From: Centroscyllium fabricii
Lineage: Eukaryota
Length of the DNA: 64,000 bases
Assembly: GCA_051313645.2 (NCBI GenBank)
Contig: JBNRSN020000010.1
Coordinates: 158,286,001-158,350,000 of the forward strand
Direction of reading: 5' to 3'
The notes beneath the pieces are model-generated. The model ran no database searches and was not told where the DNA came from. It saw nothing but the letters and a program-made list of their open reading frames with translations. This document shows, piece by piece, positions 1 through 63,492 of this stretch (positions within the stretch are counted from its first letter, which is position 1; the number at the start of each line of letters is the position of its first letter). The position numbers and the translations under genes were made by a program.

Positions 1-51
1 TACCGGCACGGGCCTGATCCCGCCCGTGCTGGATTAATGGTGCTCAACCTA
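1..51. mobile_element. End of Tigger/pogo-like non-autonomous TIR element (Pack family copy 1, cut by window edge)
   Basis: ggcacgggcctgatcccgcccgtgctggattaatggtgctcaacct matches the arm/TIR of copies ending at 36380 and starting at 10147. Confidence 0.8.
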
Positions 52-1064
52 TATCAGTTAAAACTTTACAATAAGTCATTGGTAAGAATTTTCATGTATC
101 AAGAAAAAAGATTAGTTACAAGATTTTTTTGCATTTCAAAAAAATTGCAGTAAACTACTTCAAATTGTCTTTACTCTCTATGCTTAAATGTCTCACTACT
201 GAAAAACATTAAGCTTCTGTCAAAGCCCGTTTTGAGATTACGCAAACCAGAAATAGGCAAGCTGAATTTATATCTGCATGACCACACAACTTCATTTAAT
301 TCTAAGCTTTTCTGAAAGAACCCTTACTTTGGGTAAAAGTAACTGTCTAATTGAATTTTGAATCCTTGCCATACATTCTTCCTTAAATTGAGAACAGTCA
401 GACAACCATTTGGATAAAGATGAAGTTACACTGCATTTTTGTGTGGTTTTTGGGTGTGCATCAATATACAAGCGACGGGGGTTATTAAACAAAAAGCCCT
501 GTGGCTTCAGATCCCTTTCAGAGACTACATCAAGTGAAGTGTAACTCCAACTGAACATGTGGTAGGTTGCAACAATATCTGATTTGAAGGATTCATTAGC
601 ACTTCTAATTCACCAGTCCTGTAAGCAGAGCCACTGACTTGCAGTGAATGGGACAATCTCAGTTTGTTACATATAATTCTGGAATTTTTACCAGTGTTTT
701 GGGGTTCATGCTCCAAGATTCTATCCATTTCTGAAAATTGCAGATTACTGCTCATAGGAATTTGTAATTGGTGTGAACTTAATACACAAATACAAACTAG
801 TCAATAACCACAGCAAATGTTACTGTAGCATTTACAGGAATTCAGTACAATTGGAGACTCTTGCAGTAATTGAGAAGTGCTTTAAATTTGTGAAGTTTTA
901 ATGATTTTCATAGAATTAATATAATCTAGTCAGGTGTTTTAGAAATGTTTTAACTACCTGAAAAGTTGAAAATGTTTAAGCTTCCACTATCAGAAATTTG
1001 TGTTTTGCCGATTGCCAGATTCCAGTGAAAATGCAGTACACAATTTATTTATTTTTTTAAACAG

Positions 1065-1185
1065 GGATTATTGTTCCAAAGTGACACTGACCCCCCTCCA
1101 GTGAGCACACCACAAACTTGGAAGCGTGCAAAAGGAGTTGATGCCAACAGCAGTCAACAAAAGACACTGGTGTTGTTACCTACAG
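1065..1185 (+). CDS. HIF1A: HIF-1alpha penultimate coding exon (GLLFQSDTDPPPVSTPQTWKRAKGVDANSSQQKTLVLLPT)
   Basis: AG acceptor at 1063-1064, GC donor CAG|gcaagt; resembles HIF1A ...SWKRVKG...EQKTIILIPS|D; phase 1 joins in frame to 2105. Confidence 0.85.
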
Positions 1186-1288
1186 GCAAGTTTGTTCTGT
1201 GATTTTTCTTTTAATATATTGCTCCCATTTTCTCCTTTATCCTTCTTTCTCTCTTCCTCTGCCCAATCCGTGCTGAATGGGATTCCAA

Positions 1289-2020
1289 GGGTTGCGAACT
1301 CGGACGTATTCCTGGGAGGTTTGATCAAGTGACATTCGTCACAGTTTGCAAAACCCGAATGAAGTTGTCCCGCGCGCATACGCGGACCATTCAAAATGGC
1401 TGCGCAGACCAGTGCAGGTGACCGCAGCGGTGGAGGCAGAGCACAGGGTGTTTTCTGGGTTGAGCAGTACAACTCCCCGCGGCTCACGGGTGGAACAGAG
1501 CAGAGTACGGTGGGGGAGGGGGGCACTCTGCAAGATGGAGCTCTGTAGCTCGCCGGTAAAGCAGTCTGTGAGGCCTCAGCGGATTGGAGCACTCGATGGG
1601 GACACGCCCCAGAAGGTCAGGCATGGTTGTGGACACGTCCCAGAAGGTCGGGTGCAGTTGCAGCCACGCCGTCGGGACACACCCCGGAAGTTCAGGTGCT
1701 GCTGAAGCCACGCCATCTGGACACGCCCCGGTGGTTCGGATGAGGCTGAAGCCACGCCATCTGGACCAGTGCGCATTCGGGAAAGGCCCCGGGAGGGAGC
1801 CCGGTCCAACACTTCACGGGGCCCAATCTTCATGTCAGGTACGGGGTTTTTTGTAAAGCGTAGGAAGCGTCGAAGATCACCGCTGCGCATGCACAGGCCA
1901 GTCGGGGAATTGCGGACGGTGAGGAGCACCACTGCGCATGCGCCGACCACTCGGGGAAACCTGTGCCGGACGTCTGAAGCTGCAGGTTTTTCGGGTGCCA
2001 GCTCAACGAAGTTCAACCTG
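1289..2020 (+). mobile_element. Pack family TIR element copy 2 in last HIF1A intron; left end degraded or replaced
   Basis: Arm motifs gaatgaagttg...ccattcaaaatggc and gccggacgtctgaagctgc...ttcaacctg|TA; unique GC-rich interior with short ggacacgccc repeats. Confidence 0.7.
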
Positions 2021-2104
2021 TATAGCTGTTTTTAAAGTGCACTTAAATATTTTTGATTCAATACTTACCTTTAGCTCTTACATTTATCTAAATTTTACTT
2101 TCAG

Positions 2105-60550: not shown

Positions 60551-61070
60551 GGATGTTCTTGCCATGGAAGGAGTGCAGCGAAGATTCACCAGACTGATAC
60601 CTGGGATGGCAGGAATGACGTATGAGGAGAGATTGGGTCGATTGAGCTTGTACTCGCTGGAGTTTCGAAGAATGAGAGGGGATCTCATTGAAACTTATAC
60701 AATTCTAACAGGACTGGAGAGACTAGATGCAGGAAGGTTGTTCCTGATGGTCAGGCTGTCCAGAACCAGGGGTCACAGTCTAAGGATAAGGGGTAAGCCA
60801 TTTAGGACAGAGATGAGGAGGAATTTCTTCACCCAGAGAGTGGTGAACCTGTGGAATTCTTTACCACAGAAAGCAGTAGAGGCCAATTCATTAAATATAT
60901 TCAAGAAGGAGTTGGATATATTCTTAAGGCTAAAGGGATCAAGGGATATGGGCAGAAAGCAGGGACAGGGTACTGAATTTGGATGATCAGCCATCATCGC
61001 ATTGAATGGCGGAGCAGGCTCGAGGGGCCAAATGGCCTACTCCTGCTCCTATCTTCTATGTTTCTATGTA
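60551..61070 (+). mobile_element. CR1 LINE 3' end
   Basis: EGVQRRFTRLIPG..FFTQRVVNLWNSLP. Confidence 0.9.
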
Positions 61071-61394
61071 TTTACAAAAAGCTTTTTAAAAATCTTACTT
61101 GTTATCATCACGTTGCTATGTTTGGGTACTCCTCTTGAGTTTCGGGCTTGTGATTTCTCAGTATCAGGGAGGCACAAAATTATTGTATTCTAAACAAAAA
61201 TTAAGACTTTGTCATGCCCGGTTTTTCAAAGACTCAGCGAGCCGTGTGACAGTGCTGATGATATTGATGTGGGGTCTGACAGTGGGTGATATTTGGATTC
61301 AGGCTGCTGTGGGCTCAGTGCACAGGCCTGTCCCTGGAGTGACAGCTGCAGTCGTGCTCTGCAGCTCGCTGTTTGCCCAATAGGCTTTTACCAT

Positions 61395-62000
61395 CAGAAA
61401 ACGCTGGAAAAACTCAGCAGGCTAGGCAGCATCGGTGGAGAGAGAAACAGAGTTAACGTTTCAGGTCGAAGACCTTTCGTCAGAACTGGAAAAAAGCAGG
61501 ATAGGGGGGATAGATTTTAACGCAACTAGGGCTGGGGAAACGGGGGGGAAGGGGGGCGGTGAAAGAACAAAGGGAAGGTCAGCGACAGACTAGAAAGCGG
61601 GAGCGATTAAGAGACATCGAGAGACTTTAAGAGATATTCAAGGAACACAGGATGGCTCTGGATTAAGTGTGAATGGCTCTGGCAGAGAGAAGAAAAAAGA
61701 AAAATCACAGACAAAAGTGTGGATTAAAAAAAAGAGAATTTACATGTGATGGGGGCCAAGGTTATGATCTGAAATTGTTGAACTCTATGTTTAGTCCAGA
61801 CGGCTGTAGAGTGCCTAAGCGAAAGATGAGGTGCCGTTCCTCGAGCTTACGCTGAGCTTCCGTGGAACAATGCAAAAGACCGCAGACGGTGAGGTATGAA
61901 TGCGAGTGAAGTGGAGAATTAAAGTGACAGGCAACCGGGAGCTCGGGGTCCCCCTTACGGACTGAACGGAGGTGTTCCGCAATGCGGTCACCCAGCGGCT
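61395..62000 (-). mobile_element. Penelope-like 3' fragment
   Basis: GDRIAEHLRSV..PVACHFNS..LGTLQPSGLNIEF plus pLTR. Confidence 0.85.
61451..61489 (-). ncRNA. Minimal hammerhead ribozyme motif (Penelope type)
   Basis: agtt-CTGACGA-aaggtc ttc gacct-GAAA-cg-TT-aact. Confidence 0.7.
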
Positions 62001-62614
62001 GTTTACCATTCCCATCACAGCACCAACAGCTGCCTGTGCCGTCTTCAATGAGCAAAGGAATACTATGTAAGCTGCTCAGTGACCTGCTGCACATGCTCAG
62101 TATTTCCTGAGCGCTTCAGATCACGTGCTCCAAAGCTGCAGAATAAGTTTGACAAAAGTCGCCAAGGAGTTCCTGAAGCAGTGCAACGTGGTGAGCTCCC
62201 AGTTATTATTGTTATGTATTTCTACCATTTTTGAGTCCCATTCCCGATGCTCACAGTGTCTCCTTTGATCTCTGAACGAGTGGCAGTTCCCATTCACATC
62301 ATCTCACTCCTGATAATGTTTTCAACCTGTGATAAACATGTATATCACTGTATATAGCTAATCACCATGTAACCCATACCTGTAATGTATTCCACTGTGA
62401 TACCTGGAACATACCTGGCTCCGCCCACGACTCCTCCCCCGCTGGAGGAGGTATATAAGTGACTGCCCCCATCCCCCGTGTCATTCTAGGGGACAGTCAG
62501 CTTGCTGGTGTGCAATCTTACTGTAGTGAATAAAAGCCTGATTGTTCTAATCTACTACACGACTCCGTGGACGTAATTGAAGGTAACAATTTTATTCACT
62601 ACTGAAAATGGATA

Positions 62615-63492
62615 CAGGTTGTGCACCATTAATCCGCCACGGGCGGGACCAGGCCCGTGCCGGGAAATGGAAAAAACCGGGAGAACGAGGTTGGACACTG
62701 CGCATGCGCACCATTCAAAATGGCCACGCGCATGCGCGCAACATTGTTATTGGCTTGCGCGCGCATGCGCAGATCGTCCAATATTGGCCGCCGCGAAGTT
62801 TTTTCATGGGCTCAGGCTTTTGTGGTGTTCCGTTTAGGTTTTAGGGCTGTCGGGCAGCAGTGAAAGGTCGGGCTTGCAGCGGGGGGGGGGGGAGGTGGCG
62901 CGGGTCGGGCCCAGTAGGTCCGCCTTCCCTCGCCATCGCCGGGTTGCTGCTGCTGCCGTGACGGGAGCCCGAACTCGGGCTAACAGCTGCTGCCTGTTGA
63001 CTGTCCGCCTCAGTCAAGGGGCTCAGCTGCTTGTGCTGAAACCGCAGTCTACTATTAAACACACTAACCCTCAATTGTAAGAGGTCACACTGCGCCAGGC
63101 TGTGGTCCAACGGTTTTAGTTGGGGTCACGGGCTTTCGGAGCGCCGCTTCCCCGTCAGGTGATGGGGGAGCGGCGCTCCGAAGGCACGTGATTTCGAGTG
63201 GGACTTTTGGTCTACAGCCTGGTGCTGTGTGGCTTCTTACAATTGTCCATCCCAGTCCAACACCAGCACCTCCACATCATGGCTTCAATTACACAGCTAT
63301 CGATAAAATAACCGGCGGCCGTTTTGAATGATCTGCGCATGCGCTCTCCGTTCATTGGCGCATGCGCAGATCATTCGCCGAAGCCGAGATGGCGGCTGCC
63401 ATTTTGCGCATGCGCAGTACAGTCGGGGCAATTTGTGCCGGCAGACTGAAGCTGCCGGCTATTCGGGACATGGATTAACGGTGCTCAACCTG
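62615..63492 (+). mobile_element. Pack family copy 10 inserted in Gypsy 3 gag
   Basis: TA|caggttgtgcaccattaatccg ... ggtgctcaacctg|TA; removal plus one TA restores ATG GAT ACC ACA ATG. Confidence 0.93.

Follow-up and report, generated by a model that had tools for sequence, protein, structure and literature searches.

Host gene 5' ends in amplified copies of a Pack-type, pogo/Tigger-like transposon family of Centroscyllium fabricii

Short elements with related ends and GC-rich interiors stand close together in a 64,000-nucleotide stretch of the Centroscyllium fabricii genome (C2:158,286,001-158,350,000 of a 7.21-Gb assembly; this whole stretch is called the window, C numbers are contigs of the assembly and L numbers are fetched loci), and they raise the question of whether one transposon family has taken up the beginnings of host genes and multiplied them. 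The initial annotation had read them as a Pack-type family of pogo/Tigger MITEs (transposable elements of the miniature inverted-repeat kind), where host DNA lies between terminal inverted repeats (TIRs), and had recognised two interiors as the starts of MSL3 and CENPW. Such a family exists: both named genes have separate parents, a third gene start was found, and the elements form a non-autonomous, cut-and-paste, Pack-type family of pogo/Tigger-like kind. The elements with traced gene starts, and the captured pieces (cargoes) inside them, are the following.

4717..5334, + strand: element with the 5' end of a cytochrome b561 gene; TIRs and TA flanks
4863..5232, + strand: cytochrome b561 cargo; 83% identical to its parent over 386 nt
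17059..18412, - strand: element with type-II arms, two stacked cargoes and a 30-bp minisatellite (17209-17523); TG on one side
17530..17893, - strand: MSL3 cargo; 86% identical to its parent over 380 nt
17894..18335, - strand: 'fragment X', the second cargo, origin untraced; not in the MSL3-only subfamily or the MSL3 parent
35892..36380, no strand assigned: element of the young CENPW subfamily; 97-99% identical to other copies
36075..36234, + strand: CENPW cargo; 84-87% identical to its parent

The 33-residue peptide of the MSL3 cargo matches Pfam PF22732 (E 1e-9) and human MSL3 structures (PDB 3ob9, E 5e-13). The cargo comprises the end of the 5' untranslated region (UTR), coding exon 1 (from the ATG at 17865 to 17767), a GT splice donor and ~240 nt of intron 1; its parent was located on C335, where an MRG-domain exon lies downstream. 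Peptides like those of exons 2 and 3, recognised by motifs that we take to be those of MSL3, lie on C335 8.6 and 16.7 kb beyond the captured piece. C789 was also considered as the parent and was rejected, exon 1 being absent from 80 kb upstream. A query with the element, matching either of its cargoes, gave 2,299 first-look candidates, and the other MSL3 copy loci fetched were inside elements with at least one TIR in 14/14 cases. Furthermore, there is a subfamily with MSL3 only (6/6 loci fetched, fragment X absent), in which the arm meets the parent sequence at a shared GTT. Given that this subfamily exists beside the one with MSL3 and fragment X, capture was serial.

For CENPW the protein matches are weak but consistent (PF15510 at E 0.008, below the curated cut-off, and PDB 3vh5 at E 0.001). 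The cargo holds a core promoter like those with a cAMP response element (CRE-like), a 5' UTR, an ATG at 36150 and exon 1, ending just before the splice donor, and the parent is found on C1, 10.7 kb before a single PF15510 exon. A 35-letter pattern from exon 1 has 9,371 genome matches with at most two mismatches; 28 of 29 copy loci were placed in elements by the TIR pattern and the remaining one by its arms.

The third gene start, in the 4717 element, is new beyond MSL3 and CENPW. Its parent was located on C1156, with a same-strand PF03188 exon ~22.5 kb further downstream, and the cargo runs from a promoter-like stretch through an ATG at 5076 and the first coding exon to a GT donor near 5194 and the start of the intron. 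The gene is presumably CYB561D2, a name we assign by likeness, and the promoter-like stretch has what we take to be E-box and CRE-like motifs. Another cytochrome b561 locus, on C712, was rejected as the parent, having no match to the cargo in 40 kb.

Host fragments lie between both TIRs for MSL3, CENPW and CYB561D2, separate parents were found for all three genes sought, and the TIR is absent at the borders of the captured pieces in these parents. The possibility that the interiors are only repeats, or lack a parental locus elsewhere, does not hold for these three cargoes, whose parents are separate, non-repeat loci. Capture took place from genomic DNA and not from mRNA, because intron and promoter DNA is included; retroposition of mRNA was rejected on the same introns and upstream DNA, and segmental duplication on the individual flanks and target-site duplication (TSD) of each copy.

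The remaining elements of the family in the window are listed below.

1..51, - strand: TIR end of an arms-only element that runs on to the left of the window
1370..2020, + strand: element of a variant-TIR subfamily, left end gone; family homology begins near 1370, not 1289
1408-1900: cargo of this 1289-type element, parent untraced; 2,817 first-look candidates
4126..4452, + strand: degraded element with type-II arms, degraded ends and a 31-bp minisatellite, without host cargo
10147..10740, + strand: element of the largest cargo subfamily, with 'RFX-box' cargo at ~10297-10475, parent untraced; TIRs and TA
22091..22577, + strand: element with a GC-rich minisatellite expansion as its interior, without host cargo; TIRs and TA
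62615..63492, + strand: element with 'RFX-box' cargo (~62804-63029) and a nested piece of another repeat (~63072-63290)

Nine copies with common ends and TA flanks had been annotated here. Five have both TIRs and TA flanks (4717-5334, 10147-10740, 22091-22577, 35892-36380 and 62615-63492), but 17059-18412 has TG on one side, and the copies at 1-51, 1289-2020 and 4126-4452 are degraded or partial. Their interiors had been described as mostly different, which was overstated: three of the nine are traced gene starts, the 10147 and 62615 elements carry the same cargo, the 1289 element holds an untraced one, and 1-51, 4126 and 22091 consist of arms or minisatellite only.

Genome-wide, TA was present on both sides in 135/154 paired elements, and at 184/188 and 183/188 ends at the two flanking positions. 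The TIRs measure ~22 bp, and pogo/Tigger transposons have short TIRs of 8-33 bp (PMC9219625); the TA target duplication and the short TIRs are thus features that the family has in common with them. In a sample of 105 elements the median length was 532 bp (range 285-1,676), and the elements are short, non-coding and of high copy number, as is usual for MITEs. The likeness of the ends to Tigger4/MER46, put forward in the initial annotation, is presumptive. Exact matches to a 23-letter TIR pattern number 49,153 on the forward and 49,050 on the reverse strand of the genome (98,203 together; reversed control 0). Of the 54 ends detected in 560 kb of DNA not anchored on this pattern, 17 matched it exactly, and one subset had 8 ends in 186 kb; the two resulting estimates of family size both come to roughly 300,000 ends, which makes 150,000 elements, and may be off by a factor of two. 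The density of the 64 kb had been taken as the sign of a large dispersal system. The scale is indeed large, but the window holds 6 exact ends against 0.87 expected, is ~7-fold denser than the genome average and is therefore not typical of it. A sister subfamily (L199:561-896 and L203:392-837) has the same arms and another terminal 10 bp, so that the pattern counts cover only part of the family.

The 105 elements were not chosen for cargo; they are mostly the first pattern matches on C1 together with contiguous stretches, TIR ends lacking a partner in the fetched stretch (13/82 anchored loci) being left out. The RFX-box cargo was carried by 32 elements, 27 had a GC minisatellite, 27 arms only, 7 CENPW, 3 a cargo named 'MAEIIDG', 2 CYB561D2 and 2 an L176-type cargo; MSL3 with fragment X, L117, L134, L138 and L052 were each seen once. 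This makes 10 cargo classes, with a traced gene start in 10 elements, an untraced cargo other than minisatellite in 41 and no host cargo in 54; the five classes seen once imply that further classes exist. Copy numbers are high: the RFX-box-like cargo has 17,213 genome matches with at most one mismatch, and one cargo seen once in the sample gave 2,421 first-look candidates. Relatives of the 1289-type cargo had at least one TIR in 24/24 fetched cases and both in 22, and the L138-type copy loci were in elements in 6/6. Copies thus lie at many loci, each with its own TSD, as in multicopy Pack-TIRs. Given the limited diversity of 10 classes in 105 elements, few captures were followed by massive amplification; the founders are modest in number, each amplified from hundreds to more than ten-thousand-fold.

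The copies themselves encode no transposase, as the initial annotation had stated, and neither in the window nor in the non-transposase loci examined did tblastn find a match to a transposase. The genome holds 1,714 DDE_1 candidates. The dominant DDE_1 family has open frames of up to 558-679 codons with CENP-B_N, HTH_Tnp_Tc5 and DDE_1 domains and DD32D spacing; it has the terminal CAGG in common with the MITE, and at one end 40-50 of 76 aligned positions match. From this comparison of ends it is a relative and a candidate transposase partner of the MITE. Two further Tigger-like transposases, 93% identical to each other (L197 on C823 and L198 on C800, open frames of 618-619 codons), have TIRs that start like those of the MITE and are of low copy among the matches; they are possibly domesticated, or a second candidate partner. 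On C967, between 6.98 and 9.29 Mb, eight DDE_1 matches have an identical 558-codon open frame, and their grouping on a single contig suggests that the region was amplified locally or arose by segmental duplication.

The structure of the elements bears on how cargo enters them. Cargo is joined to internal arm sequence and not to the element termini, its orientation relative to the arms differs between subfamilies, and in the L052 element a remnant of the end of the CENPW cargo persists next to a new one. Among six junctions read by eye, four have 3-4 nt common to arm and parent, one has ~1 nt and one a 7-nt filler. The type-I arms are made up of palindromic modules, which in two of three tests folded far better than shuffles (z -8.5 and -9.4, the latter fold including the pairing of the TIRs). 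Internal joins, microhomology, filler and arm hairpins together fit break repair with template switching. We therefore propose that a transposase supplied in trans moves the non-autonomous copies into TA sites, and that a copy would now and then acquire host DNA inside its arms when a break in or beside the element (an excision gap or an internal hairpin) undergoes repair in which synthesis switches template to another locus and then returns, guided by short microhomologies. With both ends intact the product would still transpose; a few founders were amplified hundreds- to ten-thousand-fold, and capture was repeated in elements already carrying cargo. The traced donors are promoter and first-exon regions of housekeeping-type genes, probably since open chromatin offers an accessible template. 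As a whole, this explanation (a pogo/Tigger-like family, a transposase in trans, capture by template switch during repair and amplification of founders) is in our judgement probable; what we infer within it is the repair pathway, the source of the 5' bias and the partner transposase.

Several observations weigh against this explanation. Only 3 of ~12 cargo fragments are traced to parents, and two of the three traced genes had been chosen for looking like gene starts. The largest cargo, the RFX-box one, had no protein match (Pfam, word searches, exhaustive phmmer), nor had 'MAEIIDG' (word search, PDB), L117 (Atlas, PDB) or fragment X (word searches, Pfam, PDB). The microhomologies are by-eye readings, the scripted junction test being incomplete with few cargo-free comparators, and one arm folded no better than shuffles (z -1.1). 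At the other end, the DD32D pogo family matches the MITE at 21/60 positions only. Finally, the autonomous pogo transposase with the same TIRs that the initial annotation had proposed to look for was found at none of the 42 DDE_1 loci examined out of the 1,714.

The first of these points could mean that the untraced cargoes are other repeats, or pieces of a lost autonomous element, and that gene capture concerns only about a tenth of the family. Pfam gave no match on 138 + 12 frames of these cargoes, protein matches were likewise absent, and part of the 62615 element and of several sampled elements is indeed another repeat. However, the cargoes have no match to the flanking repeats in ~0.5 Mb, motifs resembling splice donors or promoters can be seen by eye in several, and a Pfam match is not to be expected from 5' UTRs or disordered N-termini; we regard the idea as possible but on the doubtful side. 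Direct DNA searches for parents, in which the best 40 of hundreds to thousands of candidates were scored, returned copies in every case. Among leads that were set aside, a phmmer hit (E 5e-4) for an untraced cargo was of low-complexity type, a BTB lead at 0.85 (Atlas) had no Pfam backing, and an 'ATG then splice donor' reading of the L138 cargo was dropped, most copies reading otherwise and the stretch resembling arm.

The 'MAEIIDG' subfamily (L015:2906-3575, L024, L129, L237) has an ATG and a donor-like end, and in one of its copies part of the cargo has grown into a minisatellite, a hint that cargo may have given rise to some of the minisatellite interiors. L117:130-1805 is a long, AT-richer cargo with a frame up to a donor-like site and a nested short interspersed element (SINE). 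From L029:198 onward an unpaired element carries another exon-like cargo, after which CCAAT-like boxes recur.

The traced cargoes are gene 5' ends in 3/3 cases, beside ~9 cargo fragments without a traced parent, and three first coding exons would be drawn by chance about once in 700 (an estimate for random exons, assuming about nine exons per gene), although two of the three had been chosen as apparent gene starts. Pfam should have picked up internal exons more readily, yet none was found. This apparent bias could be due to open chromatin at the donors or, equally, to copies with a promoter being amplified better. In the latter case capture itself would be unbiased, and promoter-like cargo would multiply better through open chromatin, factor binding or transposase access, the bias arising afterwards. 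The arms are rich in motifs which we take to be NRF1-like palindromes (4.4 per element; 7.5/kb against 0.10/kb in flanks, ~77x; in 80/105 elements) and YY1-like sites (2.8/kb against 0.13/kb, ~22x; in 79/105), and these may bind factors or be merely structural palindromes. Promoter-bearing bat Helitrons also reached higher copy numbers (PMC4224331). Against such a bias after capture, the 54/105 elements without host cargo are abundant all the same, and copies lose CpG faster than other sites, suggesting germline methylation; we hold it to be tenable, though less likely than capture from accessible donors followed by amplification. Carried further, the motifs would make the family a promoter-mimicking transposon, whose NRF1- and YY1-like arms bring it to housekeeping promoters, where core promoters are picked up and promoter-bearing variants out-replicate the rest. 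This is a speculative and rather unlikely proposal. If it were true, tens of thousands of mobile cassettes with promoter, exon 1 and splice donor would be present, chimeric transcripts, titration of transcription factors or small RNAs against essential genes, CENPW and MSL3 among them, could follow, and the family would be a vertebrate counterpart of Pack-MULEs with a copy number ten to a hundred times higher.

Macrotransposition has been proposed for plant Pack-TYPE elements (PMC8903248): two elements flanking a promoter would move the piece between them, with internal deletions later. The family is dense near some genes, and the surroundings of the MSL3 parent have 15 family ends in 60 kb, with one element ~640 bp upstream of the captured piece. 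Nevertheless, none of six parental borders (0/6) has a TIR or a TA junction, cargo adjoins internal arm, and the element near MSL3 is of another arm type than the MSL3-bearing one, which leaves this model improbable here beside template switching.

The copies look like decaying passengers and not working genes. Compared with their consensus, the ratio of non-synonymous to synonymous change (dN/dS) is 1.2 for 21 MSL3 copies and 1.8 for 38 CENPW copies, and copies differ from their own consensus by 3.5-5%; consensus and parent differ at 2/99 and 4/84 coding positions. The changes cluster at CpG (25/63 changes at 12/99 sites and 35/115 at 14/84 sites), which looks like the neutral decay with CpG loss of methylated DNA and suggests methylation in the germline. 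CpG content was dropped as a means of telling cargo from flank, because the flanks are repeat-rich (observed/expected 0.60). That the dispersed exons are functional and under selection, for which the intact ATG and frame in 12/21 MSL3 and 32/38 CENPW copies might speak, is very improbable and disfavoured as a general rule given these dN/dS values and a divergence low enough to explain intact frames, single exapted copies being possible exceptions.

The rest of the window holds long interspersed element (LINE) fragments and two long terminal repeat (LTR) retroelements; the SINE and LINE pieces presumably resemble those of cartilaginous fishes. The first retroelement (49864-54386) has LTRs 99% identical and one open frame of 1,326 codons with protease, reverse transcriptase, RNase H and integrase, and is very young. 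The second (55865-60548) has LTRs 99% identical, pol over two frames, and a 45-bp GC-rich tandem array at 56933-57206 inside it. A 29-bp tandem unit family is found at 5420-5480, beside the 4717 element, and at 45425-45579. At 16417-16789 lies a hAT-like MITE with an 8-bp target duplication and TIRs unlike those of the pogo-like family, in which three 50-bp internal units contain the palindromic module of the pogo-like arms; an exchange of modules between superfamilies is possible.

Literature searches turned up no account of such a family for a shark-like genome, subscription journals, bioRxiv supplements and repeat libraries lying outside the search, and the subfamilies may sit unremarked in automated repeat libraries. 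In practical terms, work on the captured genes in this genome will be confounded, be it with reads, probes, gene models or CpG-island calls. Thousands of dated copies with several traceable founders also make a test bed for how host DNA is acquired, the reason for favouring 5' ends being left open even for rice Pack-MULEs (PMC5861414).

Like Tigger pogo transposons, which are present in cartilaginous fishes, the family has a TA duplication and TIRs of ~20-25 bp (PMC9219625), and a DD32D transposase family with related ends occurs in the same genome; unlike them, its elements encode no transposase, and an autonomous copy with the same TIRs was not among the 42 loci. With Pack-MULE and Pack-TYPE elements it has in common that non-autonomous TIR elements carry chimeric cargo, and the donors of those systems are GC-rich DNA of open, broadly expressed genes (PMC5861414, PMC8903248). 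Rice Pack-MULEs number ~3,000, with many, mostly low-copy cargoes (PMC5861414), and Pack-Mariner elements are mostly of low copy (PMC8903248), whereas few cargoes at very high copy are found here, in a vertebrate.

Animal Pack-TIRs are likewise TIR elements that enclose a duplicate of a host fragment, the parent being free of TIRs (PMC8277862). The survey of Tan et al. (2021) counted 370 of them in 100 animal genomes, ~2 per 10,000 TIR elements, with four multicopy cases, one example having 3 copies; for elephant shark, the only 'shark' row in the 12 supplementary files searched, the number is 0 (PMC8277862). Break repair with template switching is its model for the multicopy cases, in which transposition follows the switch and GC-rich DNA is favoured (PMC8277862). 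TIR gene capture is accordingly rare and almost always single-copy in that survey (PMC8277862), whereas the first exon of a centromere gene has 9,371 matches here (~9,400 copies), a traced gene start is present in about a tenth of the sampled elements and host or host-like cargo in about half, a comparison that is not strict, given that the published pipeline required young, unambiguous parent-copy pairs (PMC8277862). The family falls within the definition of a multicopy Pack-TIR and works as one, at a scale far beyond the reports for TIR transposons in animals. The closest functional analogue is found in the bat Helitrons, with 54 genes in 12,382 copies and about a thousand of NUBPL (Thomas et al. 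2014, PMC4224331). There too the DNA captured and amplified comprised promoter, 5' UTR, first exon and part of an intron, with a like preference for 5' ends, and capture was sequential (PMC4224331); Helitrons, however, are rolling-circle elements without TIRs or TSDs (PMC4224331), and the present family is a cut-and-paste, pogo-like one with more copies per capture.

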